Source: Euglena gracilis (Eukaryota). From it: a DNA stretch of 64,000 nucleotides. Below the pieces are notes generated by a model. That model was given only the letters and a program-made list of their open reading frames with translations. It ran no database searches and was not told the origin of the DNA. Positions within the stretch are counted from its first letter, which is position 1. Every line of letters starts with the position of its first letter. Shown in pieces: positions 17,144 through 49,999 of the stretch. A program made the translations under genes and the position numbers. The stretch is from positions 8,310,634-8,374,633 of the forward strand of contig CP154954.1 of assembly GCA_039621445.1 (NCBI GenBank), read 5' to 3'.

Positions 17144-17233
17144 GTGAGCCGCCGCCGCCAGCATTGGACCTCTTTGATTTGGATGAGCATTTCGCCACGG
17201 AGAAGGCGCGGTTGGCATACCTGACAAATAAAT
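17144..17233 (+). CDS. IFT52: IFT52 exon
   Basis: (R)EPPPPALDLFDLDEHFATEKARLAYLTNK+t |gtgtgt. Confidence 0.9.
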
Positions 17234-24989: not shown

Positions 24990-25930
24990 GTGCACTGAAA
25001 TTAAGGGGGCCAGGGCATTTTCTAAGGCACCTTGGGCACCAAGTCTTTGATAATGGGCTGTAAAAGCCTCCACCCCCCTCCACTAGCCAATTTCGCAAAC
25101 TTCTTGGGCTGAAAGGCCCAATTTTTTGAGTAAACCAACCCCTGCTCCTCTGGTGGAGTGGGCCCCCCACACCTGGGGGGTCACCCCATGCTTGGCCAAA
25201 AAATCTTTTGTGATAGAAGCAATGGTGTCTGCACTTATGGCCCTGAAGGGGGTTTTAATGAAATCAGGAGGGGGCCCCCCGGTCTGACGAATGAACGTGT
25301 GGCAGCCACATAACACATCATTAAATGAAATGGGCTTATTTGGGGACACTGGGGTATGGACACAACCCTTTCCCACTTATGGAATTTCTGTCCTTTACGC
25401 TTAATTTTGATGTAGGGTGCCCTACCCAACACACTGGTGGTTCGTTTGACTTGTGATAAGTCTGAGGATCGGTATAAACAGAGGATTCGTGAGCAAAAAA
25501 TCAGTTGTGTACGCAATGTACAAATATCAGTGGGCATAGGCGCCTTTGCCAGCCCCAGGAGGATTGGGAGGGGGTCCCAAAATGCACCATACTTCTCCAG
25601 GTTTTGGTTCCAAAGCCTCTTGTAGGGGGTTAACAGGGTGTGGAATCTCAGCCCACCAAACCCAGGAATCAAAAGCATTGCACTATATGCATTACGGGCT
25701 TGGGCCTTGGAAAATTGAAATAATTGAATTAAAGCGTCAGCCACCTGGTCTGTGGTGGCTTCAGGGGGGGGCACCCCCATTTTCTCCAAAATAACCCACA
25801 GAAGTGAAAAGGCACTTTGATAACGCCTTAAGCTTGGATTTCTCACCAGGAAATCGTTAATGGTTGCAATTTGTACTTGCTTCCCCTCCAAAATTTTCCT
25901 GAGCAAATCATGCAAAACAGGGGCCATCTG
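24990..25930 (-). pseudogene. DIRS tyrosine recombinase (frameshifted)
   Basis: LYRSSDL in the C-terminal part of ORF 25235..27712, GAHSTRGAG in 25083..25376, and AHY near 25050, in different frames. Confidence 0.85.
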
Positions 25931-27771
25931 GGGGGTGGCATTTGCTCCCCCCTGCAGTTGCTGAACATGCCCTTGTAGGGGGTGATTTTCAGGCAGGGGG
26001 TCCCTGGAACTTTCATTTTTATTAATTGGGGCCACCATGTGGCTGAATCCCAGTAGGGGGTGACCATCAAAACTTTGGTCTGGGGAAACATTTTCAACCT
26101 GGGAAGAAATTGTTGAATTATTGACCAGGGGGGGTTTGCATAAAGATCCCCCATGTTGTCCAGTGGACATTGTAATGCATTTACTGCTGTGGCTTCCCAA
26201 TGTGGCCACCTGGCCACAAAACTGGGCAGTTTTTTGTTGCCTGGGGAGGCAAATAAATCTGTTTCCAGATTTATAAAATCTTTGAATTGCTGTCTGAGCC
26301 ATTGAAAAAGTTGGGGGTCTAAAGAATAATCCCCCCTGTATATTTCCCATCTGCTGATGGGGTCTGCCAGGCCTTCTTTTGAAGGCACCCAGTTGACTTG
26401 GAGGTTTACTTGTTTTTCCATGCACCATTTGAAAAATGGTCTCAGCATTTTGTTGAAGGGGTCCTTTCTGCCCCCACCTTTTGTTAGGTAAAAGTAAATT
26501 ACCTGGTTGTCCACAGACAAAGAAACGGTTTCTCCAGGTTTGCTCAAACTTTTCACAGTGTTGATTGCTGCACTGAGCTCCTTTACGTTGATGTGCAAAA
26601 TGGAGTCCTTTCTCCAAAATTCCTGCACAATTTCTCCTGTGTGGATGTCTAGCCCCCCCCAGGCATGGGTGCTGCTGTCTGAGTGCAATACTCTGGTTGC
26701 ATTGTGGGGGAAGGGTCTGCCCCCCCAGGTGTCCAGCAGAATTTTTATTTCCCTTAATTGGGCCTTGATTTCCTGGGAAATGGGGTGTTTCGAGTCCCAG
26801 GGGGCTGTGGACTTTGCCACCAAAAATTTTGCCAGGGCATCCGTAAAAGCCCTTAAAAAGGGCAGGGCCATTAGGTTGCATCTTATTTGGCCCAAAATGG
26901 CAGCCAATTGCCTTTTTGACATGTAATCTTTTTTCACAATTTTTCCCAGCTCCTTTTTTATGGTTTTGATTTTCTGGGGGGGCACCTGCAACTTTCCCTC
27001 CTGGAAGTTCAATTGAAAACCCAGATGGGTTACCACTTGGGTGGGCTGGAGGGTGGACTTTTTCACATTGATTTTGAATCCAGAATCCAGCAAATCGTTG
27101 ACAACTGTTTTCAGGTGATTTTGTAAAATGTTCTGGGTGGGGGCCACCAGCAAAATGTCGTCCAGGTAAATAAACACCTGGATGCCCCTTTTTCTCCACA
27201 GTTTTTCGAAGGTTTTCATCACTGACATGAAAATTTGGGGCATTACATTTAGCCCAAAGCAGCCTGTTTGAAATTCCCAGGTCTGCCCCCCTATCTGATG
27301 CCTTAAAAAGGGCCTTAGGCCTGGACTTACTGGAATATGAAAATAGGCATCTTTCAGGTCTATTTTTGCTGCCCAGTGGCCTTTTTCCAAAACTGGAAAA
27401 ATGTGCTGGACATGATCCAGCTTGAATGGTTTTACTTGAAACTGCTGATATATTTCTCTGCAGTCGCTGATCATTCTCCATTTGGTTGTTCCCCCTTCTG
27501 GTTTTGAAATTAAAAACCATGGGATCAAATGTTGGGTTTCTGAATCCCAAACTCGTTTCACTGATCCAGTTTTTTCGTAATCCTGCAGAATTTTTTCTGC
27601 CTGGTTCAGGTCTAGGTTGGCTCTGGGTTTTGGGTGGGTGGACAATTTTGGGGGATTCACCCATGGGGGTTGAATTCCCTTTTTTATCAATTGACATGTT
27701 GCTGGGGGGCATTTTTTGTCCACCATTTTAGACTTTTTTGAAGTCTGTGGTACAGGGGGGTGTCTCCCCAT
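25843..27771 (-). CDS. DIRS pol: reverse transcriptase, RNase H and N6-adenine DNA methyltransferase domain
   Basis: Uninterrupted 642 aa: KIDLKDAYFH, CFGL, YLDD (RT); SDSS..WG, HINVKEL, VDN, ADPISR (RH); DLFAS..N and YANPPW (DAM-like). Confidence 0.93.
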   Translation of the reverse strand: MGRHPPVPQTSKKSKMVDKKCPPATCQLIKKGIQPPWVNPPKLSTHPKPRANLDLNQAEKILQDYEKTGSVKRVWDSETQHLIPWFLISKPEGGTTKWRMISDCREIYQQFQVKPFKLDHVQHIFPVLEKGHWAAKIDLKDAYFHIPVSPGLRPFLRHQIGGQTWEFQTGCFGLNVMPQIFMSVMKTFEKLWRKRGIQVFIYLDDILLVAPTQNILQNHLKTVVNDLLDSGFKINVKKSTLQPTQVVTHLGFQLNFQEGKLQVPPQKIKTIKKELGKIVKKDYMSKRQLAAILGQIRCNLMALPFLRAFTDALAKFLVAKSTAPWDSKHPISQEIKAQLREIKILLDTWGGRPFPHNATRVLHSDSSTHAWGGLDIHTGEIVQEFWRKDSILHINVKELSAAINTVKSLSKPGETVSLSVDNQVIYFYLTKGGGRKDPFNKMLRPFFKWCMEKQVNLQVNWVPSKEGLADPISRWEIYRGDYSLDPQLFQWLRQQFKDFINLETDLFASPGNKKLPSFVARWPHWEATAVNALQCPLDNMGDLYANPPWSIIQQFLPRLKMFPQTKVLMVTPYWDSATWWPQLIKMKVPGTPCLKITPYKGMFSNCRGEQMPPPRWPLFCMICSGKFWRGSKYKLQPLTISW

Positions 27772-28975
27772 TTTTCCTCCATGGAATTTATTTCCAAATT
27801 AGATGATTTTCTGGGAGTTGGGTGGGGGGTGTTGGACATTGCACCCCTGGTGCCCCTGGGGAATGAGCTTTCTCTAAAGGTGGCTGGGGGGGTGTGCATG
27901 CTCTGCTCACAGTCTCTCTGATTCTCCACTTTGTCATTGGTGTTGTCGATTGACATACCATAGGGGCCCCTTTTTGGGTCTCCCCCTTGTTTTGGTTTGC
28001 CCCTGCCATGGGCACTGACAAAGAATGTTGAGGGGGGGTTGCCCCCTTGTCCTCCACTGCCCCTGTGGGGGCATCCTCCTGGGGCTGCCACCGTACATTT
28101 AAACCCCCTGCTGGGGGACAGCTTTTTAGCTTCTGGGGGTTTCCCCCTTCTGATAATTGATGGCCCCATTGGCCTTGAAATTGTTGATGATGGAGTTGAT
28201 AATTCTGGCCCCACTGGCCCTCTTGTTGTTTGGATAGTCCCCATTGACTTCTCTTTGATCTTGGGCGCCATGCCCATTGATAATCTTGGGGGGCCTCTGG
28301 GGGCCAACCCTTTTCCCCTGATGGGGTTTGAGATGATGAATTGGGTGGGGGGGTGTTGTGGACCTGTCCTGCCCCTGCCACTGGGCATCTGTTTGTGGAA
28401 TCGGCCACCATGGCCTTGGTAATGTTGGCCACCCTGGCCTTGATATTGCTGGCCGCCCTGGCCTTTGTCCCATTGGCCACCATGGCCTTTGCTGTTGTGG
28501 CCGCCATGGCCCAGCTTGCTGTTTTGGCCGCCATGGCCCAGCTTGAACAATGTATTGGTGTAACTGGGATATGGGCCTCCATGGCCCTTGCCGTTATGGC
28601 ATGACAGTTGCCTTGGCCTTGGTGTCCGTCGGGTTTTTCTGACCACTGTCTGCCAAAGTCTGTGGCTGTCACTGGGTGGGTTTTTAGAAACTTTTTCTGG
28701 GGGGGAAGGGACAGCCACGGTTCGCCACGGTTGCACTGCGCCGTCAGGTCGTCCAGCTGTGGCTGCAGGAAGTTCTTCTTGTTCAGCAACGGTCTTCTTT
28801 GTGTTGTCAATTGCATTTCTCATTGAAATCTTGTTGTGTCAACAAAATTGGATTTGATATTCTCCACGAGTGTCACTTTCTGGATAATTCGATTGATTCA
28901 ACTCTTTGATATTCAACTGTCAAGCTTCTTGAATTGAAGTTCCTTTCTTCTGGGTTGTCGAAGGGCAAATTAAGA
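27690..28975 (-). pseudogene. DIRS gag-like ORF1 (disrupted)
   Basis: Lies between the 5' ITR and pol; homologous to the + strand copy at 30095-31320 (FPFDPEERSFN / LPFDNPEERNFN). Confidence 0.6.
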
Positions 28976-29164
28976 ATCAGCCAACTCCGGCGAAAAAAGG
29001 CACTAAGCAGAGACTCCTAACCCAACGCGTCACAATCCACACAACACCGCCGGCGAGCAAGGCATGACCTAACAAGGGCAAAGTGCGGAGCCCGAGGTGT
29101 CCCTCGGTGTCCCCTCCTCCCTTCCTGGTCTGCCTCGAGGGACCTCGGCGAACAAGGCATGGCC

Positions 29165-29500: not shown

Positions 29501-29966
29501 TCTTCACCAATTATGGATCTTGTTGGTACTTGTTGATCTTGCTTGCTTTGTTGTGCGATAGCTTGTGATAGCTTTCATTTATAGCAGGGCTACGTCAGCC
29601 AACTGCTGGCGCGAAAAGCGGTAAGGAGAAGACGCAAGGCAAGAAAAACAAAGCACAATAGCCGGCGAGGGAAAGGCAGGTCCCATCGAGCCAAAGTGTG
29701 GAGCAAGGGTGGTCCGCCCACCCTTGTCACGGAAAGCCTGCGGGCCCTTTTTTATTTTAAAAAACCACCAGCCTTCTTGGGCTTTTCCGGCTGGCCCCGT
29801 CCTCTTTTGGCCGCCATCGCGTCCGTCCTGGGTGGGCTCCCCGCCAAAGCAAATTCAAGGTCAGCCCCGAAAAGCCCGGCTTTGTCGAAGATTTTTCCGT
29901 GCGAACGCAGTCGCAGGTACTCTTTTTTCTGGAAAGCGAGGGGTAGCGCCGAAAACCACCTCGGGC

Positions 29967-31321
29967 CACCTCGGGCTCCGCACTTTGCCCTTGTGAGGCC
30001 ATGCCTTGTTCGCCGGCGGTGTTGTTTGGATCGTTCGTTGTGCGTTGGGTTAGGAGTCCCGCTTAGTGTCTTTTTTCGTCGGAGCTCGCTTATTATTAAT
30101 TTTCCCTTCGACCCAGAAGAAAGGAGCTTCAATACAAGAACCCTGACAATTGGATATCAAAGGATAGGTCAACTAAATTATCCGGAAAGCGACCCTCGTG
30201 CAGAATATAAAATCAAATTTTGTCGACAAATTAAAGATTTAAATGAAATATGGAATTCCAAAGACAAAGAAGAGCACCTGTGGACTACAAGAACTGGCTG
30301 CCGCTGCAGCTGGACGACCTGACAGTGTGGTGCAGTCGTGGAGAATCGTGGCTGTCCCTCCCCTCCCAGAAAAAAATTCTGATCACCCACCCAGCGACAG
30401 CCACGGACTGTGGCAGACAGTGGTCAGAAAACCCCGAAGGACACAAAAGGAAAGACAACTGTCAGGCCACTGCGGCCAAGGCCATGGAGGCCTATATCCC
30501 AGTCACACAACTACATCGTTCAAGCTGGGCCATGGAGGCCACAAAAGCAATGACCACATGGAACAAAGGCCAGGGTGGCCAACAGTATCAAACCCACGGA
30601 GGCCGACTCCACAAGCAGATGCCCAGTGGCAGGGGCAGGACAGGTCCGGAACACCCCCCAACCAGTTCTTCATCACAACCCCTTTCAGGGGCAAAGAAGT
30701 GGCCCCCAGAGGCCCCACAAGATTTTCAATGGGAATGGCGTCGCAGAACAAAGAAAAGTCAATGGTGACTTTCAAAGTTTCAAGAGAATTATTCTCATCC
30801 AGGCCCCCGGACCCCTCATCATGCTCAAGTCCAACAGTTTCCTCAAACCCCTTCAGGGGTAAATGAGTGGCCCCCAGAGGCCCCCCAAGATCTTCATTGG
30901 GCATGGCGTCCCAGAACAAAGACAAGTCCATGGGGTTTGTCAAAATTTCAAAAGGCGGGTGGACTCAACACCAAGAGTGCCAGTGGGGCCAGGATTTTTG
31001 TCAAGGCCACTGGGGCCAGCATTATTCTCATCAACCTGGCCAAGACCAACAATTTCAAGGCCATTGGGGCCATCAATTATCAAAAGGGGGAAACCCCCAG
31101 AAGCTAAAAGGCTGTTCCGGCAAAATGGGAATTCAATATACTGTGGCAGGCCTGGGAGGAAGCCCCAAGAGGGGCAGTGGATGACAAGTTCTTCAACGCC
31201 CATGGCAGGGGCAAACCAAAGCAAGGGGGAGACCCTCAAAGTGGCCTCTACGGAATGTCAATTGACAACCCCAACGACAAAGTGGAGGATCAAAGAGCCT
31301 GTGAGCAGAGCATTCACCCCC
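29967..31321 (+). mobile_element. DIRS copy 2, 5' part (ITR and gag-like), head-to-head with copy 1
   Basis: Starts CACCTCGGGCTCCGCACTTTGCC; colinear with the reverse complement of 29100-27895; breaks at 31321. Confidence 0.85.
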
Positions 31322-32481: not shown

Positions 32482-32912
32482 AGTGTACGTCCCACCCCGG
32501 CTTTTCTACTTATGCTTTCGTCCCGGAAAGCCCGTGGGGGGAGTAACGATAAAATTTGCTTCCCTTTTCCCCTTTTGAATGCAAAGCACACAAGCAGAAA
32601 ATTTGGTGGGACCGCAGTCCCTTAGATGAAAGTGACTTTTGCTCTTTCGAGGTTTGTAAAAGAAAGAAAAAAACTTGTATTCAAATGGGACTTCGTCCTC
32701 AGAATTCTAAAACAGAATTGCAAAGCACCAAACCCAATAACCTTGAATTAGGAACCAGTTACTTTCGCTAAGCTTTCGCTAGCTCTGAGATTCTCTCTTT
32801 GTCTTATGGTTTAACCATGCCACTGTGTACAGCCCGGCCGTAGCCAGCTTGTAGGCCGTAGCCCATTGTATCTGGTACACAGTGCCATGGCAGAATGGCC
32901 GCCTGGTACACA
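32482..32912 (-). repeat. 3' LTR of element A
   Basis: Direct repeat of 53582-54011; PPT GAGGGGGA immediately adjacent (32913-32920). Confidence 0.93.
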
Positions 32913-32999
32913 TCCCCCTCACAGGGCTCTGCCCGATTTCTCTTCTGGACCAGGCCAGTCGGGATGCCAGGCACAGTCCCAGGTTCAGGGAGACAGCAC

Positions 33000-35900
33000 C
33001 AGGATACCATGGTCTGGTTCCCAATTACGGTTACCGTGTTTGGAGCACGAAGCACAAAAGAATTCTGGCGCGCATGCTGTGCTTCGTGCGTCTTCTTACT
33101 TGACACCGTAGTGTCTTTGTGGTCTTGAATTTTCGCGATTAACGTGATATCCACCGAACTTAAGGTGATTCCGCCATTGTGTCTTGAAACGGTGTTGAAC
33201 ACGATGATGAAGTGCGTATTCACGCTCGAGACTTCGCTCAATATGCGGGACTACACCCATTTCAGCCGTAACTGATTGTACGATATAGGAAACCCTCAAC
33301 GTTTGCGGGTTTCCTTGAAATAATCACCCATATGTGGGTCTTGTACCAAGGTCATTTCAGTTGGACGTAAGTCTAGGATATCCTTGTCAGGATCATCCAT
33401 GTTGATCCGTGGGATAACCCAACTTTTGACTTCTTGTATTTCCTTGGGCAGTTTCAGCTCTCGGAAAAACTCTCGGAAAAGTTGCAGGCCATATGTAATA
33501 GTTCCATCTTGGATGGTTTGCTGGTACCTGTGGTGGCATCCCAGGCAGAGCGTTGAAATCAACGTTGTGCGCTCGGGATGCACAGGCACAGCGGGTTATG
33601 TGTGGTTTCAGAATGGTGCCAACCCATTCTGAGTAATGTTCGTAACCATGTCGTTCAGGTGGATAGTCAGGCAATAACCATCGTTGTGTGGTTTCCGAAA
33701 CCGTTGAAGGCTTTGTAAAGAGTGGGTAAATGACTCGTTTCCAGTCGTCATCATTGAAGAGTAAGGGCAATCGCGCTTTTGTACATTCCACAGCAAGTCT
33801 GATTCCGCCGGAATCAGTTTGGAAGTCAAAGGCGATTCCGCCGCGGTCAAAAGCCTCAGCTTTCTTGAAACTTTTGTGTTGGTACATTTGTCGTTTTGTT
33901 TTGTAGAAATTGAGGAAATCTTCCAGAACGTCCTCGCTTCCGGGTACGATCGATCTTGAGATTTCCGCCGTCTGCGGGCAAATATATGTCTGCCCGTAGG
34001 CAGTTGACACAGAAAACTGGTACGTCACGGTCTCTGTCCTCTTCCGACCACCGGGAGTTGTTCAGTTTTCTCCAGACAAGGATGCAATCACCACAAATCA
34101 AAGCGGCTGTTTTTGGAACGAATTCATTGTGATGGAAATTTTTCTGTTTGTTGTCAGCATAACAGACATGCACAGCCGGCATGCTGTTACGAATGTTGTG
34201 ACAGACCGTACAGAGCCAGGTTGTTTGGCCATTCGGCCTATTGTCAAACAAGAAGGTTTCCCCAAGGTATTCGGCAAACACTCTTGGTGATCTCGCATTG
34301 TAGAATCGCCAAATATGGCGAACATAATAATTGTACTTTTGTTCGTTGAAAAACAATGGTTCAATCCACTTGTTCAACAACATTCCGCGTTCGCGAACTG
34401 ATTTTATCATGGCAATGCGTTCTTCGACGCTCGGCAGGTTGGAAATAATGTCCTCTTGCCAAAGAGTGGCATTATCGTCAACGGGCATGTTTTCCTCTTG
34501 CGAGGTCTCAGACATTGTATCTTGTCGAGTTCTACCTCGGAGGGTAGAAGTGACCCGGCTTTTCCTGGCCACTTCGGTATATGTTGGTGCTGGTGTGGTA
34601 GCAGCTCGGGTCTTCGCCCGCTTTCCTGATTTGCTACCACTCCCAGGTGGAGGTGGTTTTGGTTCGTTGTGTCGTTCAGCAGGTTTGAACGGTTCTGCAG
34701 GCTGTGGTTTAGCCTTAGGTTTACAGCCTTTCTCTTTCCGCTGTGGCGGAAGGGGGCGTTCTGCAGGCGACTTTGGAGCAGGTTTGACCGTTGATGTGGT
34801 GGTAGGTGGTACGTCAGAAGCCGTCGGTACCACCTGTTCAGGTGTGTGTACCACTACGGGTGTTGTGTCATGTGGTGGCGTTTGTTCGACCGTAGTCGAT
34901 TCAGTTGTTGTCACCACTTCCAGTGTTTGGACATCAGGAGTAGAGCTGGCCGCGTCTGCTGCCAGTGCTGTGGTGGGAGCTGTAGCTTCTTGTGTTGGTT
35001 TCTCGCCAATTCCCGTGTCACCTCGATCGCACCATTGCAACCATCGAGGCTACGCCACTTCGGACGCTTCCGAGGACGCGTTCTGCAGCGCGTCCAACTT
35101 GTGGTGGTATGAGTATAAAGTCGTCTGGGTCTTGGTATCTGTCGATACCTTCTCGTTGTTGTCTTGTGATCAGTTCGCGAAATGCGATTATCTCAGCATC
35201 AGTTACTTCGTGTCCAGCTTCCGCATGTGCGGGAGTAGGTGGAACCACTTCCGTCGAAGGCGCTGCGGCCGTTGTGGAGTCTACAGGCACTTCGGCCATT
35301 GTAAATTCTGCAGGCGCGTCAGGTTCCGCGTCTGGCAATGGTGTTTGTGGTCGTGTTTGAGCAGTCGTTGTAGCTGGCACTTCGGCCCTTAGAGCGTGTT
35401 GTACGCCGGCGTTGTCGGGTTCAGACTCGACAGATGCGGAGGAGACGGAGCGTGTACTGTGTTCATTGTCTGTCCCTTCTTCCATTTCCTCATCGCTGGA
35501 TGACCCAGAAGAGGAAACAGACGAAGAGTCTGAAGAGTGTACGGGAGTGTGTTCCACAGATATGGTAGGTGTAGTTGGAGGTTGTGGCAAACCTTCTTCC
35601 GAACGTTTGGTTGCAGGCTTCGCTGCTGCTTTGGCTGTTGAAGTTGTAGATGTTGCAGCCGTTGGAGGTTGTTCAACTGCAGACTGCGCTGCTTCGGACT
35701 CCGCCGGCTGAGGTTCAGGGAGTTTTATACGTGGTCGCAGACGGAAGTTTTGCCATCCGACAAATTTGTTTCCTCCCGATCCGCGAGGAAGCCAGTCCAG
35801 TATTGGGATGTCCACCCATCCTTATTTGTACGTTTGCCCTTGAAAAATGGGGCAAAGTCCTCTTTTCGGAGGGTTTCGCCAAACAGGCGTTTGATGTACT

Positions 35901-38900
35901 TCCCTTTTCCGTCTTCGTCCCATTCAGGTCGAAGAGGGAGGTATTCTTGTGGGAGTTGTTGTTTAGGGTTGAATATATTGTAGATTTCCAGAGCATAGGA
36001 CACCCATGCTCTCCATTGGAATGTCTGCATGTGCAGAAGCATTTGTCGGTGGTTTCGTCTGGCGTATCCGATTTCCCTGACTTCGAGGCGATTGTGGTAG
36101 ATGTGTCCAAGTAGTCTTCGTTGTTGTTGGGCCTCCGCCCATTCGCGTTGGTGGGGCTGCGCCCTTTGTGCGTTTGGGCGGTCGGTTGTCCGACCGCGCA
36201 CGCCAAAGCCCCAGAAGTCCACGGGGAACTTGTGGTGGCAGTGGGTGCACCAAAGCACGAATTTTTGTGGGTATGTCAGGTCGATTCCGACCACTTGGAA
36301 GTTGGGGCCGTAGTGTTCGTTGAGGAACATTTGGTAGTTGTAACATAACATTTCGTGTGCCACCAATTGTATATCCTTTGGAAGAGGGAATACTTCCCAT
36401 TGTATGCCTTGTGGTCCGATTTCTCGGATATTGTCGAACATTGTCTTCAGTGCGTCAAGGAACGATTATCATCCGTATTGTAGCTTTGGATATGGCAAGT
36501 AGTGCGCTTGGCTGGCGGGCATTGCAAATGAACCGAAGTTCATGCAATGAAATCCGAGCCAGAAAAGTAGTTGCCAGAAACCCGGCAAATTGTCGATGCC
36601 ATCCTGGCTTTCGTAACAGGAGATTGTACCGTCGAAGAAAAAGCCACGGGCTTTTTCCTTGTAGAGTTTGACCATGTTGTGATGTACTTCAGGAGCAACA
36701 ACCCAAGGGTGTTGTTCCTCATACTACTTGTGCATAATTGTATCACATCCGTCTGAGATCCAGAACAGATGGTCAATCATAAATTGTACGTCCAGGTCGT
36801 AACCCGGTTGTGAGCCTTCGCTCTTTCCTTTGCCTTTCTGGCCTTTTCTGTCCTTTTGCGACTTCGCGCTCTTGTTCGTTCCAACGGTATGCACCGTCTT
36901 TTCGGTATGCTCGAGTTTTTCTCCACATTGTAACAGTTACACCTGCGGTGTAGTGTCCAGGAATGTCATCAGAGGGTTTGTCTGGTCGCATTTGATGATA
37001 GATTTCTTGTAATGATCGTTGAACGTTGGACGGGATCGGCAAGCCATCATTGTCCTGACGATCACGTTGCGCCTGCGCGCTTTGTGGATCGTCGTCCAAA
37101 CGACGACGTTGTGTGTCTGGCGTTGGACGTGTTTGTGGTGGTGTCGCAAACTCCGGTCCACGTGGACGTTTGCGCGCGTCAACGTTGTATGGTTTTGCTG
37201 GGGCCGTCAAATGTTGTAGAGCTTCCTTGTAGGTGGCGCGTTGTGCTGGCGACTCAAACCTGGGTTGACGTCGAGAAAGGTTGTCCCGGTTCAACAGGTG
37301 GTTGTGTCTGTCCAGCCGAAGCCGGTTGTGAAGGTGTTGTGACAGGAGGTGCTCGAACAGGAATTGTAGATTGTGCGGGTGCATTTGCACGTGCCGACTG
37401 CGCGTCTTGAGCAGGGGGTCCTGTTCGTTGTATAGGTACAGGTTGGTTTGAACCTGCTGCCGATGCGGCAGGCGGAATAGATGTTGATTGTGCAGTCGAA
37501 ACTGCTTGTACCGGTTTTGTTTGTGGTGCCGGAGTAGGTTGAGCTACTGGCGGCACGAGATTTGACGCCGAAGCGAGTTGTTCCATTGGACCAGGTGGAT
37601 GTGGTGGCGCATTCACACGCAAAACTTCGGGTAGTGCCCAGGTGGGTATACCCAAAATTTTGGAGTTTGGACCAATGCCATCCATTATCACTCCTTTCAC
37701 GTTGATGGCTCCCTAATGGGATCCAAGTTCGTAAATTTTGTCAAGGGGAAGGTACTGTTCTCCTTTGGTTGTGTAAGCGAAATCCGCAGATTGTGGTACT
37801 CGTTCATAGTGAATATTGTCCACTACGGGACGCAGGGGATTTTCTCCGACAACCCGTATCGCTGTCGGTTCCGGCAGCGGCACGGCGGGAGTTGTCGGTG
37901 GTTGCGGTTGAGATTGTACCGATGGTTGAGTTTGTACGGGTTGTAGTGGTTGGGGAGCTGGCTGAGGTTGTTCGTCAGTTTCCATGGTAGACTCCGGCTC
38001 TGGTTCTGCCGTTGTATACTCGTCATAAGGCTCTTCGGCCATCTCGTCGGGATAGTTGTCGTATGACTCTTCGGCCTGCATAGCGTACTGTGATTGCATA
38101 CCAGCCTCCCAGTTCCGGGCAGGTGGCATGTGTGGGGGAGAGGAAAAACGTTGTTGTGGTAAGTATATTGGTTCTTGCATTTGTACATCACCCATCTCAC
38201 TTTCTGTGAGTTCAGGAGTATAACGGCGCATGTGTTCGGCGTAAGCACCCACGGGGTGCACTCCGCGGAGCACAGGCGGGACCAGGACTCCCAGGTCCCT
38301 GAGGGTTACGTTGTCTGGAAATCCGGATTCACCGGGTTTGAAGAAGATTCTACCCGCTATCGTACTCTGGGACCACATGTCCCAGGTGGCGATAGGCTTG
38401 TTGGCGATTGCAAGCAATTGTCGGCAGTACGAATCCCACATCACTCGGATGAAGGGATCCGGTCTGTCCTCTGCGCACATGCGCAGAGCGTTACGAATTG
38501 TATCTGTTGAAGCCGTTGTCAGTTCACCCATGTACTTGGGGAACCGAGGCATAACGGGAGCGGCATACTGCCTTTGTGGAGGTTCTGGTTGTGTGGCATA
38601 CTGCCCTTGTGAGGGTTGTGCGGTTTACTGCCCTTGAGGAAGTTGTGCGGCATACTGCCCTTGTGGCGGTTGTGTGGGGTAATAATGACTACGTAGTTGT
38701 TCAGCCCATTGTCGTTGTTCAGATTGGATATATTGTTGTTCTACCGCCGCAAAAGCAGCGCGTTGGCTACTGCTACTGGCCAGATCGTATCTCCTTGGGG
38801 CCGCTGTTGCGGCACCGCAAACTGTTCACAGGCAGATTCCGTTTGTTGTGGAATCCTAGGTTGAGATTGTATGCCACCAAGTGTCGTTTGTTCTGGAGCA

Positions 38901-39169
38901 ACATGCGGAACCGCATGTTGAGTCACAGGGGGCTTTGCCACTACGGACCTTGCTGCCGGAGCAGCTTGTAACGGAGGGGCTGCCACTACGGGCCTTGCTG
39001 CCGAAGCAGCTTGTACATGCCGAACAGGGACTTGCTCTCCACGAGGGAGTGCAAGTCCTCGTCCTCCCGAAGGAGGTTGTGGGTGAGGGGGTCCTCCCGT
39101 AGGAGGTTGTCCAGGGGGAACATACGGTTGGGAGGATGGAGGACCAGGTCCCCTTCCTCCAGCATCCAT
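33000..39169 (-). pseudogene. Element A large extra 3' ORF (Pro/Gln-rich with Cys/His motifs; frameshifted)
   Basis: Near-continuous chain of sense-strand ORFs from MDAGGRGP (39169) to near the PPT; includes CTVC..HVC..H..CGDC..CVNC. Confidence 0.65.
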
Positions 39170-39496
39170 CTTGAAAAAAAAGTAGATAGTAGCAAGTGCT
39201 GAGCTGTGGGGAAACAGAGAAATAAGGCATTGTACGGTAACATTGTACGCATGCAACGAAGTGCACACAAACACAAAAATATTTGCATGTGTGCAATAAT
39301 TGTAAACGAAAATTGCAGCTCCCAGTGTAAAAATCGGTTTTCGCTAAAGGACCGTAGTCCTTTAGCGAAAAGTCCTTCGCTAGGGACAAAATGGTTTGGC
39401 ATTCGCCCATTGTACATTTTCGCATCCGCCCATTATACATTTTGTCGAAAGTCCATGCTATGGACAAAATCTTGGACATCTTTGTATATCCTTCCT

Positions 39497-39594
39497 TAGA
39501 AGGTATTTACAGAAATGTTAATGTTGTCTCGTTTGTTCCATAGCTTCCAGTCTTGCTGGATGTAACCAACAAAACTAGTTGCTGGTTCCCAAGT
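39497..39594 (-). pseudogene. Element A chromodomain C-part and pol stop
   Basis: TWEPATSFVGYIQQDWKLWN...TAA; completes WKGYGPEEG|TWEP. Confidence 0.85.
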
Positions 39595-41134
39595 TGTGGC
39601 ATTGGACATGTCCCTACCTTTCAGATAAATTAGGACTGAGTGCGCGCGCTGCACACTGTAAATTCTGTTTTTTCTGTTCAGTCAAACCTCATGAGTTGAT
39701 TGCTGGGCCGTTGGGTCGTGGCCCCCTGGCATATATCTGTACCATGGGACTGACTGGGGATTTGGAGATTTGAGTTTTGCGCTGTGGTTGAAGTTTGAAA
39801 ATTTGAAGTGGAATTGGCCTGCCAATGGGGCGGAAGGCAAAGCCCAAGGCAAAGGCAAAACCCAAGGCGAAGCCGCAGCCAGCCAAACAGGGGGCCCGGG
39901 GTCGGGCGGCAGAAAAGGTGTGGATTGCGAAGAGAGCCGCCACCCCGGCGCCGCCCCTGTTTCACAATCAACTCGCCTGTGACGACCAGTCAGATGACAC
40001 AGTGGAGCATGCTGGACTGGTGCATGCACCAGTGGGACATTCTGGCGCTGGAATTGGTCAACATGTTCAAGATGTACATTCCGGTCATTTGGGCCATGCC
40101 GCAGATGCACATGGGGTGCATGCTGCAGATGCCGCAGATGCACATGGGGTGCATGCTGCAGAGGCCTCACATGCACATGGGGTGCATCTTGGGGGTGGCC
40201 TGACTGGAGATGCAGATGACAGAGGTGTACATGCAATGGCGGCCAGGTCAGGGCAGATGGTGGATGCCCTGGCCCGGCATGCTGAAGTTGGGCATGAGGG
40301 GGGCACGACCCGGCCATGTACAACCGCTCAGGGTTTGGCCACTCAGAAAGCCGGTTGTGCTTCGGCCGCCGAGAAAGGGTCCCCCAGCAGAGCTTAGGCC
40401 GCTGTGGGGACATGCAGCATTGAGCATGAAGGCATTGCGCATTACGACATTGGGCATTCCGACATCGAGGATGACGGCATTGGGAATGTCGACATCGAGG
40501 ATGACGGCATGGGACATGCAGCTGCAGACCCCAACAGTGCTCCGGCCGTTCGGGCGATGGAGATACAAACCGCCAGCCGCGCTGCGGCCGCTGGGGTCCC
40601 TAGGTTCTCCAATGTGGGTGATGGTGATGTACCGATGGAGATCCAAACCCCCAGCTGTGCTTCGGCCGCGGGGGTCCCTGAGTTCTCCGTCCTGGCGTGA
40701 TTGGGGTCCCGCCTGGAGAAGGACGGAAGTGTGATGGATTTTGCTGGGCTGATCTTGGATGCCACTGTGGGGTGAGTGGCGGCCAGCCCAATCTGGGAGG
40801 CCAAGACATCTCCGAAGGACCAGCTGGAAGCAGTGCATCGTCGCCGAGGGCGGAGGCTACGCCGGCGGCAGTGGATGAGTCCATAGCGGAGTCTCGACGA
40901 CTGGCCGTGCGGTACGAGCGAGAAGCCCGAGTTCGACACAGGGATGCGCTGTCGGAGATGAGGCCGCTGACGGAGACGGAGAAGCAAAAGAGGCGGAAGG
41001 ACCGCCTGCTCCACCACCAGGGACGGTGGGAGTGAGGAGGAGTGGCCGAACCGAAGAGGCGGCCCGGGTAACGGGCGAAGAGTCCGCCCCGCCAGCCCTC
41101 CCGTTTAGAGTTGGCCTGCATTTTGGGTTCCCCT

Positions 41135-42210
41135 CCTGGTGGGTTACGACCCCAGGTTGGGGGTGATGCGGGTTTTGGGGAATTACGAGTGACAAATGAC
41201 CCATCTGGTGTGTTTCGACCCCAGGTGGGGGGGGTTATTGTTTCGTATGTTGAGTGTGATAAATGACCCATCTGGTGTGTTTCGACCCAGGTTGGGGGGC
41301 ACATTACTGTTTCCGGCATGAGATGAGATGACCCATCTGGTGTGTTTCGACCCCAGGTTGGGGGGGCACATTACAGTTTTCGGAATGAGATGAGATGACC
41401 CATCTGGTGTGTTTCGACCCCAGTTTGGGGGGTACATTACCATTTTGGGAAGGAGATGAGATGACCCATCTGGTGTGTTTCGACCCCAGGTGGGGGGGTA
41501 CATTACCGTTTTTTGGCCCCTGGTGAGTTACGACCCCAAGGGACGCCTGGCCCGGTGACATTGTTGGTTTGATGGTCGAAGGTGTCCCGTCCTCCCCCTT
41601 GGCTGTAATGCCCTGGTGGGAATGTTGGAGGCCTGCCCTGGAAGTGGTGGGTTTGTTTTGACGGTTCAAGTTTCGACATTGGACATTACCATATTTTGAC
41701 ATTGGACCACGATCGTTGCCTTATCGCCTTTGTTTTTCAGCCTGGAACCCAGTGAGTCTCGACCCTGGGGGTGGGAGGCTTTTAGATTCGGAGAGAGTGC
41801 GAGAGTTTTGTGGGTTCATGGCCCCAGGCCCCTCACCCGCTGAGTTTCGACCGCGGGGTGGGGGGGTATTTCCAGTTTTGAGTTTTCTTTTTTTTCAGAG
41901 AATTCCAACCCGGACCTGTCACCCGCCGAGTTTCGACCGCGGGGGGGGGGGCAGCCTTCTTTTTGATGATGTTCGGGTTGGAGCCTTTCCATTCGAATTC
42001 CATTCATGGGGGGTTTTGGGCCCGAGCCCCCACCCGCTGAGTTTCGACCGCGGGGGGGGGCGTTTTCAGTTTTGGAATTTTCAGTTTTCAGTACAAGGCC
42101 CTGGGGCCCCCGCCCGCCGGTTTCGACCGCGGGGGGGGGGGCAGATTTATGTTTTCGGTGCGCTTTGGCCCCGGTGGCCCCCCAGTTGAGTTTCGACCAC
42201 GGGGTGGGGG
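41135..42210 (+). repeat. Array of ~13 related stem-loops in element B
   Basis: Core TGWGTTTCGACC enclosed by complementary flanks; five ~63-bp tandem units followed by dispersed copies. Confidence 0.85.
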
Positions 42211-42480
42211 GGTGGAGGAGGACATGTCCAACGACCAAGGGAGTCAAGTATGGAGACTGGGTCTCCTTTTGGGAAGGGGAGTGTGGCATTGGACATGTCC
42301 CTACCTTTCAGATAAATTAGGACTGAGTGCGCGCGCTGCACACTGTAAATTCTGTTTTTTCTGTTCAGTCAAACCTCATGAGTTGATTGCTGGGCCGTTG
42401 GGTCGTGGCCCCCTGGCATATATCTGTACCATGGGACTGACTGGGGATTTGGAGATTTGAGTTTTGCGCTGTGGTTGAAG

Positions 42481-43471
42481 TTCCTCTGCATGGATTTTCT
42501 TGAACTTGAACCTTGCAAAGGAACAGATGACGAAATTTACGATTACGTTCTTGTTGTCGTCTGTCGGCTGAGTCGGTACATTGTAGCCATTCCATGCCAC
42601 AAAGCAGGGTTGACAGCACAAGTTTTAGCACAAATGTTTTTAGAAAGATGCATTTGCCTCATGGGTTTACTGAATTGAATCGTGAGTTATCAAGACCATT
42701 TGATTTCTTCTCGATTTTTTACAACTCTTTGCGGTTTACTCGGAATTGAGCAGCATTTTTCTATCATTTATCGTCCAAAAGGCAATGGTCGCGCTGAATC
42801 GGCAGTGAAAGCTGTAGTCAACATGCTACGACTTCAACTGGCCGAATCGCACAATGCCTGGCTACAAGTATTACCCTGGTGTTTGTTTTATATTAACACT
42901 TTACCGGGGGTGGTACTACAATACTCACCGTACAAGATCGTCTTCGGACGTGATCCCCCAGCCATTGGCGACATCCCGTGAGAACGACCTGCTCGTTCTA
43001 GCGTGAGTTGCGAAACATGGTTCTCTGAAGTAGAATCATTGCGCACGGATGTGCAAAAGCGCGTAGTCGCTATACACTTACAAAAACAAAAACAATTCTT
43101 ACAGGATTGCAAATCACCGATATACAACCCAGGTGACCGCGTGTGGGTTAGGAACACTAGAACCCGCATGCAATCCACGAAGTTGGACCCCCTCTGGATC
43201 GGACCATGCGAGATCCTCGATCGGTTGAGTACAAGTGGGCGCTACAAAGTCGCTTTACCCAACGGTGTCGAGGATGTGCACATGGATGACTTTAAACCAT
43301 ACCTGACTCCACCAAACGGTAAAGCCATACCCTGTCTCTACTTCAAACCAAGGTCAAAACTGCCTGAGACAGATGATTTTGTCGTTGACAAAATCCTCGA
43401 CCACAAAGTAGACAGAGGTATACATTACTGGAAAGTACGGTGGAAAGGATATGGTCCCGAAGAGGGCACTT
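42481..43471 (+). pseudogene. Element A integrase core, GPY/F-like region and chromodomain N-part, inverted relative to the rest of A
   Basis: CMDFLEL, YRPKGNGRAE, KLDPLWIGP, FVVDKILDHK..YWKVRWKGYGPEEG. Confidence 0.9.
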
Positions 43472-43632
43472 TGAAACAGGGGCGGCGCCGGGGTGGGGGC
43501 TCTCTTCTCAATCCACAGCTTTTCTGCCGCCCGACCCCGGGCCCCCTGTTTGGCTGGCTTCGGCTTCGCCTTGGGTTTTGCCTTTGCCTTGGGCTTTGCC
43601 TTCCGCCCCATTGGCAGGCCAATTCTACTTCA

Positions 43633-43944
43633 TTTGGTACGGGGAAGAAGTCCATCGTACCAGGGGGGGCTACCTCTGCGCGGATTCACAGCTTGGCAAA
43701 TTTGGCACCGTTGCGAAATTTGTAAACAGCGCTTATACAGACCTTTTTTGGTCAGGGTTGTACAGTACCTGCGACCCACCAAAGAAAGAAGTTTGGGGGC
43801 CCCAGGGTGACCTTGGTTGTGATAACATAAAAGTACGTCATCAACCAAGTCACAGGGTATGCAGTACTGGTAACCGGTACCATTCCAAAAAATCAAACGT
43901 AAAGGCGACAAGGTATAATTCGTAACCAATTCACCATTACGCAA
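43633..43944 (-). pseudogene. Element A integrase zinc-binding (HHCC) domain
   Basis: HNQGHPG...CQICQ. Confidence 0.85.
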
Positions 43945-44064
43945 TCTTTGTACGACAGCATTGTAAAAATCATCTTCGAAAAAAGAGAGGGGATGGAGAT
44001 TCTGATCGCGTGACCCGGCGGGGGCCCGGCATTCTGCCGCGTTGTCATTTTCCCCGTACGGGGG

Positions 44065-45640
44065 CTATTGACATCCGCCGCCAAATCCGCGAGACAGGAA
44101 AATTGTCAAAAGTAGGTTGTCAGCGGCGTCTGCGCGTCTTGCGTATTCGTCGGCTTCGCGACTTCCGTGGAACGTGGCATCACCCTCGTCAGGGTTACCA
44201 GGGTAATGCCAGGGTGCACGTGAAAGTGGGTCTGCGACTTTTTGAGTATGACCTGGTGTGTAAGCTACCACCAGGTTGAATTGACTCAAAAATTCGTGCC
44301 ATCGGCATCCTCGGCCAACTGAGGACACGGCTTTGTTCAAGTCTTCGGTTAGCAGTGTTGGAGAGACTCATGGTCTGTCAACACTAGTATTTGTACGAGT
44401 GAACTGGCGACCCAACTTCGGAATTTTTGTAGGATAAGGACAATGGCATACGTCTCCTTTTCTCGTATGCTCCATTTGACTTGTTTCTCTTCCGTCTTCA
44501 CCTTGTAGCTTTCTGCTGAAGAATGCTACAGGGCGCAGTTCATTGGACGAGTTATGTTGACTCAACACACCGCCGACAGCATAGTCACTGCTGTCCACCT
44601 CAAGTACGTATGGTTTGTACGGGTCGGCAATGTCAAGTACAACGTTGTCCAACATCAGTTGTTTAATTGTCGTTAGTGATTCTCTCATTGTATCATCCCA
44701 TTGTATCTTTGTGTTGTCAGGAGCGCGATTTTTGAGTTGCCGCGTCAGAGGTACCGCGATTTTCGCGAAATCCTTCATGTAAATCGCGTAATACTGCGCT
44801 AAACCCAAAAATCCTTTTAAATGGGTGATTGTGTTGATTTTTTCAGGTGTCCACGTCTTTATAGCTTCGAGTTTGCTTGGAGATGCTCTCCTTTGTCCGT
44901 TACTAAGAATGTGTCCACAAAATTTTATCGTTTCGCGAAACAAATGCATTTTCGCACCTTTGACGAAAAGCAAATGTTTTTGAAATGTTGTCAGTACGGA
45001 ACGGATATCGCGGTAGTGAATATCAAGGATATCACTACCCGAATTTGTAAGTGGAGGCGGTGTGCCTATCAGCACGTCATCAATGTATACCATTGCAAAC
45101 GGTGAGTCTCGCAAAATCCATTGTATCATTCTTTCGAACATGGATGGGCCATTCTTAACACCCATTGGTAACACCGTCCATTGGTAAACTCCACGAGAGG
45201 TTACAAATGCGGTGTATGGTTGTGAGTCAGGGTGTAAGTGCATCTAATGAAAACCACCTTCTAAGTCGAAAATCGACCAGAGGCGGTTTTCCACTTGTTT
45301 TGTAATCAGGTCTTCGATAAGCGGTAACGGAAATGGATCGTCTTTTGTCTGTGAGTTCAAGTATCGGTAATCCAGCACAAGTCTCCACTTCTTCTCTCCA
45401 GAAGCATCGGGAGGCTTGGGTACAACAAAAGCTTGTGAGGTCCACTCGCTTTTGAGGGTATGATCCATTTTCGTTCAATCAGTTTTTTGATCATTGTATT
45501 GAGAGCTTGTTCTCTTTCGCCTGAACAGCGAAAGAGTTTTCGGTGCATGGGCTGTGCACCTTCTTTGAGTTCGATTTTACAGACACCAAAAGGTCCGCGA
45601 ATTGCAGGATCTATGTCATGGGCATAGATAGGATGTTCTA
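44065..45640 (-). pseudogene. Element A reverse transcriptase and RNase H (disrupted)
   Basis: WRLVLDYRYLN, FDLEGGFH, LPMGVKNGP, YIDD, VDSSDYAVGGVLSQ, VADPLSR. Confidence 0.93.
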
Positions 45641-45819
45641 AATCATCACTGAATTCGCGATTGATCTTTGTACATAGTTCTTGTGATTTGGGATGTTGAC
45701 CACCGCTTTCTATCACTGCGGATAGTTGGTATATTTGGTCATTCTGACCTTTATCTCGTAGGAATTTGTCAATGTGGTCTTTTTCCCGTAGGAATTTGGC
45801 AGTGTGGTCGACAGTTCCG

Positions 45820-46165
45820 AATGCATCAAAGAAACAAACACGAAAAACGATTTCTTTCAATGGTGGTAACATGACACCGCAAAAATCTTCAAACAAAGGG
45901 GTATCATTCGGTAAATCCCACCACTGAAAAGTGACATACGTCAATTGTTGGAACCATTCCGCTTCGGGATTTATAGCAATCAGTAGCACACCGCGTGCTT
46001 GATCCCGAAGGATCTTGTCAACGACAAGACGGTTAAGTTTCAGAGGTGGATGTAGCCACAGGACCACATCACCCCAAAACTCATCAAACACATTTGTATG
46101 GCTTGACCAGTAATTGGATAATCGAGAATGTGCTTTGGACGAAAATGTCCATCGACTTCGCGATT
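45820..46165 (-). other. DAM-like N6-adenine methyltransferase domain within gypsy pol
   Basis: VD.FSS..HSRL..YWS...NVF..FW....LWLHPP...LVVDKI..DQARGVLL......WFQQL aligns by eye to the DIRS MT domain (DLFAS..N..L..F...YANPPW..I...L.....LMV.P.W...WWPQL). Confidence 0.7.
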
Positions 46166-47129
46166 TGTGCGATTTTGGAAAACCAGGTTTCCAAAATGCG
46201 GTATTGTCCAAAATTGAACGCATTTCAGATGCGGTTCGCGACAACTGTTGCGGTTTCAGTCCTATGGAGGGTTGAAACACAGTTTACCGAGCCACATCGG
46301 TAATACGTGGTGTCCGAAGACACTTCATCAGGCATTATACCAGGTGTATCAGGTGTATTGTGTAGAGGACAATTGTCGTTGGCATTCTGCCAGTTGTATG
46401 CAGGGACATTGGAGGGGTTGGCATTCTGCCATTCGGGGTCAGAGAGATTGGCTTTCTGCCATTGGACGTCCTGTTGTGCGATTCTCGCGATTCCGAACAG
46501 GGACGCGATTCCGCGTTTGTCCAATTGTTGATGTACTTCAACACACAACGGGTAACAACCCGGTGTGTTGTGTTCTCGTTCAGCGGCCAGGGTAAACTTG
46601 GTACCGGTTCCGGTATCAAGTATCCTCTTGTTGTTGTGTAAAGCGATTAGTTTGGAAGGTTCAACAATACATCCACAGTCGAAATCAGGTTGTGTGGAAA
46701 TTCTCCGGCAATGTGCGCATTGGTAGAAAGTGTCGGTCTGGTAATACCTGTCAGTCACGTGTAGTGTGTTCATGGGGGTGTTGGAAGTTGTAGCTGCTGG
46801 GGGGTGTACAGGGGTGTCCGAAATCGACGCACGTTGTGCAGCTGGGCGGCTACTCGACACCAAATTTGTTCAGGTCTTTGGGCTTTCGCCTTGGAACCCA
46901 GTGAAACGTGGGGGGTTAAGCTACTCGATTCCCCTACCGCATGGGAAACGTGCGGTATAAGTGTGATGGGCAGGGGGGCAGCTTTCTCTTTACCCCTAGG
47001 GTAGGAACCGGTGTTTTCGGTTGTAGAAAATGTTGTGGCCAGGCGGGGGGACATCTGGGGAGATGTCATGGGGGAGAAGTTCGGTGGTGTGGGTTGTGTG
47101 CGTGAAGTAGTGCGCAAACCGAGGGAGGG

Positions 47130-47708
47130 GCAATCCACAATAAGGCGGTTCTGAACCAAGAACGGAAAACCCAAAATTACGTCAGAGCCGCGAATACCCG
47201 ATTCGTAACTCCAGGTACCCAGAAAATTTTGTATGTGCGGGGGGTGTGAGTGGTGCTTGGGGATGATGGGGAGGAGTATGTCCAAAAAGCATCCCAAGTC
47301 ACCACCACACATGGGGCTGTTGTCAGCAGTCATAATTTTGATGGGGTACTTGGCTTTCACCAAGAGGGAGTTGGGAATTAATCACGTTCGAAAGAGAAGG
47401 GGGATTCGACACCCTGTGTTGACCAAAATTTTGCATTTGGTAGAAAAATTTTGTGTTCGGATTTCCGCTTGGACTAAAAGTTCCATGGGGGGTACGCGAA
47501 GTGCAGGATCCGGTGTAAAATTGTTGTCTCTCCAACTATTCCAGGATCCTGTTCCTACTTTGCTCAGCATCCCAGGCAGAAATTTGGAGTGGGGGGTGGG
47601 GGACCCGAAAATTTTCCGGGCACCGACCAAAAAGGCAGATGGGCAGGGTAAGTAAGGTTGATCAGGTCCTACTTCCGTCTGTTCATCAGCCCAGAGGTCC
47701 GTGCCCAC
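47130..47708 (-). pseudogene. Element A aspartic protease
   Basis: ILVNTGC (ILVDTGC in element C) and DVILGFPFL. Confidence 0.85.
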
Positions 47709-49199: not shown

Positions 49200-49990
49200 T
49201 TTGGTGGGGGGGGGGGGGCGAGCGATGCCAATGAAAAGAAAGTAATTGGGACTTCGTTGTTTTTGGATTTTTTGGTTGAGTTCGGAAAAGATTCCCCCTT
49301 CTTTGTGGCATATTGAATCGCCTTTGTTTCCCCCCCCCAAGTTTTCATTACCGCACATTCCCCCTTTTTCTTTTGCACTTTTTGTTGTTTCATCCTTCTT
49401 CCGCCAATACTTATCACCTTGGAGTTTTTTTGTCCCGTTTAAATCCGGGATTGTCTCCGGCGCAGGGAAAAAGGAATGATCATCCGAACATGCTTATGAA
49501 CTCTTTTTTCCATTTTCTCTTTTTTTCTTCCTTTTCTCTTGCCACTCTCTTTTTCTCCTTTTTTTTCGTTCTTTTTTCAGCCCTTCTTACCTTCTTTTTT
49601 TTTTCCTTTTTTGATTTTTCATTTTTCCCCTTTTTCCACCTCCCTCCGTTTTTTTTGCTGTTCCCAGAAATTCTCCAAATAATATGGGGTTCCGGCATTG
49701 GGGAAAATTTTTGTCCGGGGAGGATTTTCCTGAAAATGTAGCGTAAAAAATAACAATTCTCCTGCCACAACAAAAACAATGGACTTTTCGGCCATCTACC
49801 TCCCTGGAAATTTTCCCAAGACCACAAGTGCGAAGACCCCAAAGTCCCGGGTTGGGTGCCATGGGGTTTCGGGACGGGGAAAATCGTGACATTTTTGGAA
49901 AAAAATAAAAAAATACAATCCCTTGTTTTTGGCCGGGACTTCGGGCGTAAACCTGGGGGTATTATGGGGGGGGGGGACCATGGGCACATT
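49200..49990. mobile_element. Low-complexity insertion within element A (boundaries approximate)
   Basis: T/C-rich, homopolymer-rich block with no counterpart in element C; interrupts the reading frame. Confidence 0.45.
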
Positions 49991-49999
49991 TTCTTGGTA

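Follow-up and report, generated by a model that had tools for sequence, protein, structure and literature searches.

A long third open reading frame after pol, probably a decayed gene, in a 21.5-kb gypsy-type retrotransposon of Euglena gracilis

What is the coding sequence of nearly 6 kb that follows pol in a giant long terminal repeat (LTR) retrotransposon of Euglena gracilis, and does it belong to that element? The retrotransposon, which we call element A, lies on the minus strand of contig CP154954.1 (assembly GCA_039621445.1), within the 64,000 nucleotides from 8,310,634 to 8,374,633 that make up the whole stretch of DNA analysed, referred to here as the window; all coordinates below are positions in the window. 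An initial annotation, made from the sequence alone, had proposed an extra open reading frame (ORF) downstream of pol with a splice acceptor of its own. We suggest that this frame, ORF3, is the decayed third gene of a 21,530-bp Ty3/gypsy-type element that carries a chromodomain, and we regard the account as a whole, including the way in which the gene would be expressed, as probable, though not strongly so. Its structural part we hold with considerably more confidence, and the part that concerns splicing, which is taken up below, with less.

ORF3 and the element that carries it

ORF3 was delimited by reading the minus strand from stop to stop between 39343 and 33299. This gives twelve open stretches, at 39343-38744, 38825-38628, 38624-37716, 37712-37257, 37543-36776, 36936-36727, 36723-36472, 36465-35728, 35821-35021, 35049-33859, 34061-33396 and 33595-33299, which overlap or abut at all 11 junctions and leave no unbridged gap. 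The first of these stretches has its earliest ATG at 39169, and the last runs to 33299, with a stop directly after it; the frame as a whole (33296 to 39169) has 1,957 codons, with seven frame changes and five in-frame stops. The tiling that had been described at the outset is thus borne out, and only its end, first put near 33000 with some 2000 codons, has to be moved to 33299. Six of the sense stretches are of at least 200 aa (397, 303, 267, 256, 246 and 222), and when the same 5.87 kb was shuffled by mononucleotide, any stretch of that length arose in only 8 of 200 shuffles, which shows that we are dealing with real coding sequence, beyond what chance would give.

The conceptual product is rich in proline (11.0%), alanine (8.3%), threonine (7.5%) and glutamine (6.9%), and tracts rich in these four residues are interleaved with globular blocks at about 38550-37900, 36720-35750 and 34500-33300, much as the initial annotation had it when it spoke of Pro/Gln/Thr-rich tracts alternating with such blocks. 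The highest Kyte-Doolittle mean over 19 residues in all 11 pieces examined is 1.14, and the N-terminus, MDAGGRGPGPP..., is rich in glycine and proline and not hydrophobic, so that nothing points to a signal peptide or to a membrane anchor, and the earlier view that the protein is not envelope-like can be retained. An envelope protein of retroviral or errantiviral type was accordingly rejected as the identity of ORF3, there being neither a signal peptide nor a membrane-spanning segment. From its sequence we would predict a modular protein that is soluble and not bound to membranes, with three or more globular blocks connected by long linkers rich in Pro, Ala, Thr and Gln.

Element A, in which ORF3 lies, occupies 32482-54011. 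Comparison of the window with itself by BLAST pairs 32482-32912 (the 3' LTR) with 53582-54011 (the 5' LTR) at 95.1% identity, as LTRs of 431 bp whose boundaries are those of the alignment. Read on the minus strand, both LTRs start with TGTGTACC and end with GTACACT, and outside them on either side is the 5-bp target duplication AAAGT (54016-54012 and 32481-32477). A primer-binding-like site that begins with TGG (TGGTAGCAGAA...) comes directly after the 5' LTR, and a purine run, GAGGGGGA, the putative polypurine tract, directly before the 3' LTR. There are no tRNA genes in the window, and hence no tRNA there to match the primer-binding-like site. The similarity of the LTRs, the AAAGT on both sides, the primer-binding-like site and the purine run together identify a single LTR-retrotransposon insertion.

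The interior of element A begins with leader tandem repeats of 46-77 bp at 52816-53272, found with Tandem Repeats Finder, and with an extra coding region upstream of gag (49483-53069, minus strand), which has weak coiled-coil-type Pfam matches only and holds a coiled-coil-like open stretch of 469 aa at 50259-51665. Then comes gag (48034-49005, minus strand), with a CCHC zinc knuckle (PF00098, E 4.3e-5, scoring 23.8 bits where the cut-off is 20.8), followed by pol (43633-47738, minus strand), which has frame changes and stops and comprises a protease-like region, reverse transcriptase (RT), RNase H and the integrase H2C2 domain. For the last three the Pfam matches are RVT_1 (E 1.6e-13) and RT_RNaseH_2 (E 5.2e-18), both in 45243-44371, and Integrase_H2C2 (E 2.1e-7) at 44064-43633. 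Pfam gives no match at all for 47738-46773, where the protease would lie, at E up to 5; the stretch ILVNTGC stands where we would expect the D[TS]G of an aspartic protease.

The order of RT, RNase H and integrase is that of Ty3/gypsy elements. The integrase core follows, but in the opposite orientation to the remainder of element A: at 42483-43632 it is the plus strand that matches rve (E 5.3e-4), SH3_Tf2-1 (E 8.2e-7) and Chromo (E 2.3e-5), the last with 24.6 bits against a cut-off of 25.1 and covering profile positions 1-32 of 53, that is the first part of the chromodomain. The last open stretch of pol (39496-39681, minus strand) contains ...ATTWEPATSF... and ends in a TAA stop at 39498-39496. 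We take the TWEP stretch, at about 39590, to be the missing second part of the chromodomain and the end of pol; Pfam made no call on this 61-aa piece alone. About 370 bp separate the chromodomain halves, beginning near a GT and ending in AAAG, and it is conceivable that they are an intron-like insert. The domains thus run from the CCHC knuckle of gag through RT, RNase H and H2C2 to rve, SH3 and chromo, and by this content element A is an LTR retrotransposon of Ty3/gypsy type, most probably with a chromodomain. The start of ORF3 is 326 nt past that of the spacer after pol and its stop is 383 nt short of the 3' LTR, and the untranslated tail between them (32913-33295, minus strand) ends in the purine run that abuts the LTR.

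ORF3 is therefore downstream of pol, as first described, and a caveat has to be attached, since the integrase region just upstream, at 39595-44064, is rearranged. The piece at 39595-39795 is a 100% identical duplicate of 42282-42482 over 201 bp, and 39804-39964 is the reverse complement of 43472-43632 (96.9% over 161 bp). These junction pieces bound a GC-rich tandem-repeat block of 2.3 kb (39965-42281; units of 33, 30, 78 and 66 bp), which has no Pfam match on either strand, and they flank the inverted integrase segment. One could suppose that the link between pol and ORF3 is an artefact of assembly or rearrangement, the duplicates marking a false or secondary join of two copies. It would fit that the 201-bp duplicate is perfect although the LTRs of element A differ by 5%, and that the duplicates sit around the repeat block and the inverted segment. 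However the lower junction runs straight on into the TWEP stretch, which would complete the truncated chromodomain, and then to the pol stop, and the two LTRs have matching target duplications. Two joined copies would also be of the same family, so that ORF3 would still come after pol, and even with a secondary join it can be seen at the lower junction that ORF3 comes after the 3' end of a pol gene. We thus consider such an artefact quite improbable.

We think that ORF3 is the element's own gene because of its codon composition, its decay in step with the rest of the element, the lack of any marks of a nested element, and homology on the coding strand. The GC content of third codon positions (GC3) is 0.448 in ORF3, 0.467 in pol and 0.457 in gag with its upstream region, and 0.986 and 0.976 in two exons of the host IFT52 gene in the window, a small sample of 111 codons; the codon composition of ORF3 is thus not host-like. 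Disruptions number 12 over the 5.87 kb of ORF3 and at least 8 over the 5.4 kb of gag-pol, a similar density such as neutral decay of both since one insertion would produce, and one consistent with the 5% divergence of the LTRs. Between 32900 and 39700 there are no inverted-repeat pairs and no flanking direct repeats, Pfam finds no RT or transposase domain in the ORF3 region on either strand, and 11 antisense open stretches scanned within 33000-39200 gave no Pfam match. The sole homology found for the region, described below, is on the minus, coding strand.

The initial annotation had allowed that the region might be an unrelated nested element or a captured host gene, and the marks looked for speak against a nested element. 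More broadly, the 6 kb could be foreign to the family, a captured host or viral gene or a nested mobile element confined to this copy or to a small sub-lineage. In favour of this are the dependence of the ORF3 comparison on one copy, the visibly rearranged integrase region next to it, and the fact that its only relatives are unnamed environmental proteins without retroelement domains. It is difficult to reconcile with a GC3 equal to that of gag and pol and far from that of the two host exons, with the same strand and a similar disruption density to pol, with the missing terminal repeats, inverted or direct, and the missing transposase or RT, and with the placing of ORF3 exactly between the pol stop and the polypurine tract. 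We judge a foreign origin improbable, and it is most likely, going by codon composition and decay, that ORF3 was an intact gene of the element, of about 1,950 codons, at the time of insertion and has decayed neutrally since.

The blocks of ORF3 and their relatives

The conserved part of ORF3 is its second block (35920-36630, minus strand). An exhaustive phmmer search of 1.84 billion representatives, with two in-frame stops of the query read as X, gave six matches (P0002-P0007) at E 7.1e-10 to 7.1e-4 and 23-48% identity, and in tblastn all six align solely to the minus strand at 36630-35920. No Pfam domain is present in any of the six, which are unnamed proteins from metagenome or run assemblies; five are singleton clusters and the sixth is a cluster of two members. 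The motifs G[FL]DN..FW, GI.W and YPQ.[FY]...C..C......DFWG are common to block 2 and the relatives. In four of the six relatives H[RH]C follows DFWG; ORF3 has CTHC and DFWG, and at the position of H[RH]C it has GHIY after an inserted stretch, as expected for decay. The CxxC...H.C of block 2 is, from this alignment, a zinc-knuckle-like signature, the last cysteine of which would have been lost in the decayed copy.

Other searches with block 2 added little. When block 2 and its relatives were combined into a profile, the one match was P0006, already a row of that profile, and in PDB the best match of the profile was at E 0.33. The structure model has a pLDDT of 53.1; a wide VIA-align search with it gave a best Z of 4.6, to helical hairpins only and barely covering the better-modelled core (residues 85-175), and Foldseek found no PDB match at E of 0.001 or below. 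Block 2 was not found in JGI metagenomes or in prokaryote genomes, nor P0002 in viral contigs. The Lys/Gly-rich leads of P0004 and P0006 contain PPPY-type motifs (PPPPYAP and PPPYEQ), which resemble those that act as late domains in viral Gag proteins. One may see in this no more than a hint that viruses or retroelements carry the block 2 relatives.

The relatives raise the question of whether ORF3 was ever a single gene. They are complete proteins of 332-689 aa, with a methionine, a Pro-rich and Lys/Gly-rich lead and then the domain, and the same order recurs inside ORF3, where a Lys/Gly-rich stretch at 36936-36727 mirrors the lead and precedes the domain. As the blocks of ORF3 have no similarity to one another, the region could be divided into between two and four consecutive smaller genes, with limits such as 39169 to about 37700, some 37300 to 35000 and some 34500 to 33299, and with the low-complexity tracts between them untranslated or separate. 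We find this rather unlikely. The open stretches meet at every one of their junctions, the linker tracts are themselves open over 150-270 codons, and the only AT-rich spacer with acceptor-like motifs is that which precedes 39169.

The cysteine motifs that the initial annotation had picked out are all there: CTHCHH at 36249, CTVC at 34212, CGDC at 34095, CVNC at about 34015 and CLGCHH at 33547. Three of them fall in a Cys/His-rich block (33990-34220, minus strand) with the spacing CxxC-x12-C-x9-HH-x11-CxxC-x24-CxxC, which has no match in Pfam, among PDB sequences or in NCBIfam. It is plausible that the block binds zinc. The initial annotation had called the motif RING-like and hinted at an E3 function, and this we could not sustain. 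A RING-finger E3 ligase is not supported because the spacing does not match what we take to be the C3HC4/C3H2C3 cross-brace, in which the second pair is C-x1-3-H; because the 397-aa piece matches no RING, PHD or U-box profile in Pfam at E up to 1; and because the RING-type leads from the Atlas, at 0.82-0.85, are all below the 0.9 line. Modelling of the Cys-rich block, which the initial annotation had proposed, gave a pLDDT of 33.7 and is unusable.

Nor do the other blocks fall into a named family. Ten of the 11 pieces of ORF3 have no Pfam match at E up to 1, the eleventh having one sub-threshold match to a domain of unknown function; all 8 pieces compared with NCBIfam were without a match, and PDB gave no significant sequence or fold matches. 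In word-indexed searches over a limited length range, the 397-aa piece had no homologue among 4,458 candidates and residues 20-170 of block 1 had none among 125, and an Atlas search with block 1 gave no usable match. There is no internal duplication among the blocks, and Rfam gave no matches.

Expression of ORF3 and comparison with other elements

How would a gene so far down the element be expressed? The spacer between pol and ORF3 (39170-39495, minus strand; 326 nt) is AT-richer than its surroundings. It contains a 23-bp unit repeated 2.1 times (39395-39443), a second T-run with AAG directly before the ATG, and a pyrimidine tract followed by CAG, TTTCTCTGTTTCCCCACAG, which ends with its G at 39204. 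The initial annotation had drawn attention to this tract just before the start codon, and it is indeed present, with 34 nt between it and the ATG at 39169. We called a site acceptor-like where at least 14 of 16 bases are pyrimidines and one further base and YAG follow. By this fixed rule the 21.5-kb sense strand of element A has no such site other than 39204; the whole window has 8 such sites on the minus strand and 21 on the plus strand. The three host acceptors that we could read all have the pyrimidine-tract and CAG form, and two host donors have the form G|GTGTG.

We tentatively propose that the ORF3 protein would be made from a sub-genomic RNA of element A, in which splicing would connect the CAG at 39204 with a donor in the 5' leader or, should the host trans-splice, with a spliced leader, and that the product could act as an accessory factor binding nucleic acid or chromatin for the element. 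The env genes of errantiviruses are a precedent for spliced sub-genomic RNA. In the leader there is a donor-like G|GTGTCT at 53510/53509, 72 nt past the 5' LTR, which resembles the host G|GTGTG; such sites are common, and while it is the only candidate, no convincing leader donor was found. We put the splicing part of our proposal, as judged from the motifs, at somewhat less than an even chance.

Expression of ORF3 could also do without cis-splicing, by way of an internal promoter in the 326-nt spacer or of spliced-leader trans-splicing at 39204. The AT-richness of the spacer and its repeated 23-bp unit would suit a promoter, the acceptor-like site would serve trans-splicing equally well, and the G|GTGTCT is poor competition as a leader donor. 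However, among the paper titles searched none describes an LTR element in which a downstream ORF is expressed by adding a spliced leader, and from what the spacer offers we consider this route doubtful, if a real contender. The share of sampled words in sequencing runs was 0.46-0.53 for DNA (14 runs, one organism) and 0.09-0.23 for RNA (six runs, possible or recorded); these shares, including 0.10 in a leaf-litter metatranscriptome, are evidence of neither expression nor habitat.

Several points weigh against taking ORF3 as a single, spliced third gene of the family. It is seen in one copy, a second element of the family in the window (element B) ending inside RNase H. The rearranged integrase region with its 100% duplicate leaves room for a join made after insertion or in assembly, and the stand-alone relatives of block 2, at 332-689 aa, fit several smaller genes equally well. 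The site at 39204 is a motif match; going by how often such sites occur in the window, about 4 to 7 of every 100 spacers of 326 nt would contain one by chance. The function of ORF3 is without homology support in the Pfam, NCBIfam and PDB searches.

With regard to known systems, third ORFs after pol are already well known in LTR elements. The env gene of errantiviruses such as Drosophila gypsy likewise comes after pol and is made from a spliced sub-genomic RNA, the route that we propose for ORF3 with its acceptor-like site close ahead of the frame, but ORF3 has no signal peptide or membrane segment and is some 3-4 times longer than what we take to be a typical env gene. Ogre elements of legumes, which exceed 20 kb, resemble element A in giant size, in having an additional ORF ahead of gag and, if the splicing proposed for element A holds, in an internal intron; to our knowledge they lack a chromodomain and a 6-kb sense ORF after pol, and it is by description only that we set them apart.

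LTR retrotransposons of bdelloid rotifers carry ORF3s that are not envelope genes (Rodriguez, Kenefick and Arkhipova 2017, PMC5408684). They resemble element A in being of Ty3/gypsy type with a sense third ORF after pol that is not an envelope gene, and their ORF3s were acquired modularly. The bdelloid ORF3s are recognisable enzymes (GDSL esterase, DEDDy exonuclease), whereas that of element A has no recognised family, is of about 1,950 codons and sits in an element with a chromodomain. In the plant Ty3/gypsy elements named Retand the region from pol to the 3' LTR is 2.9-6.6 kb and contains tandem repeats (Vicient 2025, PMC11963269). Retand and element A are alike in the long region after pol (about 6.6 kb in element A), the tandem-repeat arrays and the extra coding capacity, but Retand elements are non-chromoviruses with antisense extra ORFs (TRP28 domain), and the ORF of element A is in sense. 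Methyltransferase domains have been added to certain LTR elements with a chromodomain in Euglena gracilis and in green algae (bioRxiv 10.64898/2026.05.21.726589). These are likewise chromodomain LTR elements of unicellular eukaryotes with added modules thought to handle host chromatin; element A differs in that its addition is a separate ORF, with no methyltransferase match in Pfam.

Element A is thus set apart by a sense ORF that is longer than its 5.4-kb gag-pol, by the presence of a chromodomain, and by a conserved block in a family that the libraries do not name. An ORF3 of that length and of no recognisable family would be among the largest additions of this type. The extra genes of LTR elements are of interest for what they reveal of dealings with the host, be it envelope capture, chromatin targeting or counter-silencing, and the CxxC...DFWG family, with six remote relatives among 1.84 billion sequences, provides a handle for finding more. 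If the acceptor at 39204 is used, it would give the route by which a third gene is expressed in Euglena gracilis. As a single decayed copy, element A has its value as a lead for a survey of the family as a whole.

A bolder proposal is that ORF3 encodes an accessory scaffold of some 2,000 residues in a giant chromodomain LTR family, with a new zinc-binding domain and with leader addition at an internal acceptor. Were it true, no LTR element before this one would have been shown to release a downstream gene in the manner in which trans-splicing hosts resolve their polycistrons, and the zinc-binding domain would be one common to uncultured eukaryotic or viral sequences. We regard the combination as a long shot.

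Other features of the window

Element B lies at 55985-62992, also on the minus strand, and is of the same family, with about 72% nucleotide identity to element A in pol. It shares with element A the gag, protease and RT regions and the region upstream of gag, and it is cut off inside RNase H, where it adjoins the 5' LTR of element A; the window gave no LTR that belongs to element B itself. The upstream-of-gag coding regions (49483-53069 in element A and 61617-62992 in element B) have 30-52% protein identity by tblastn. As both elements carry it, this region is a family feature, unlike ORF3, which has been seen once. In JGI metagenomes the RT piece of element A matched five short contigs at 30-34% identity, too distant to be of use, and it had no match in viral contigs.

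The host IFT52 gene is on the plus strand at 8460-17240, with short exons of GC3 near 0.98, kilobase GT-AG introns and donors of the form G|GTGTG. Its exons match the IFT52 of Chlamydomonas and of mammals about equally, and its presence implies a eukaryotic host with flagella or cilia.

The first part of the window (1-6226) is a large tandem array with a unit of about 151 bp, a higher-order period of about 1 kb, 59-62% GC and copies that are 95-99% identical. A further RT ORF is on the minus strand at 25238-27798, with stretches of 830 and 651 aa, an RVT_1 match at E 3.4e-22 and no integrase, and is perhaps from a non-LTR element. Beside it are the two arms of a diverged inverted repeat, at 27890-29109 and 29957-31321, with 72-76% identity.

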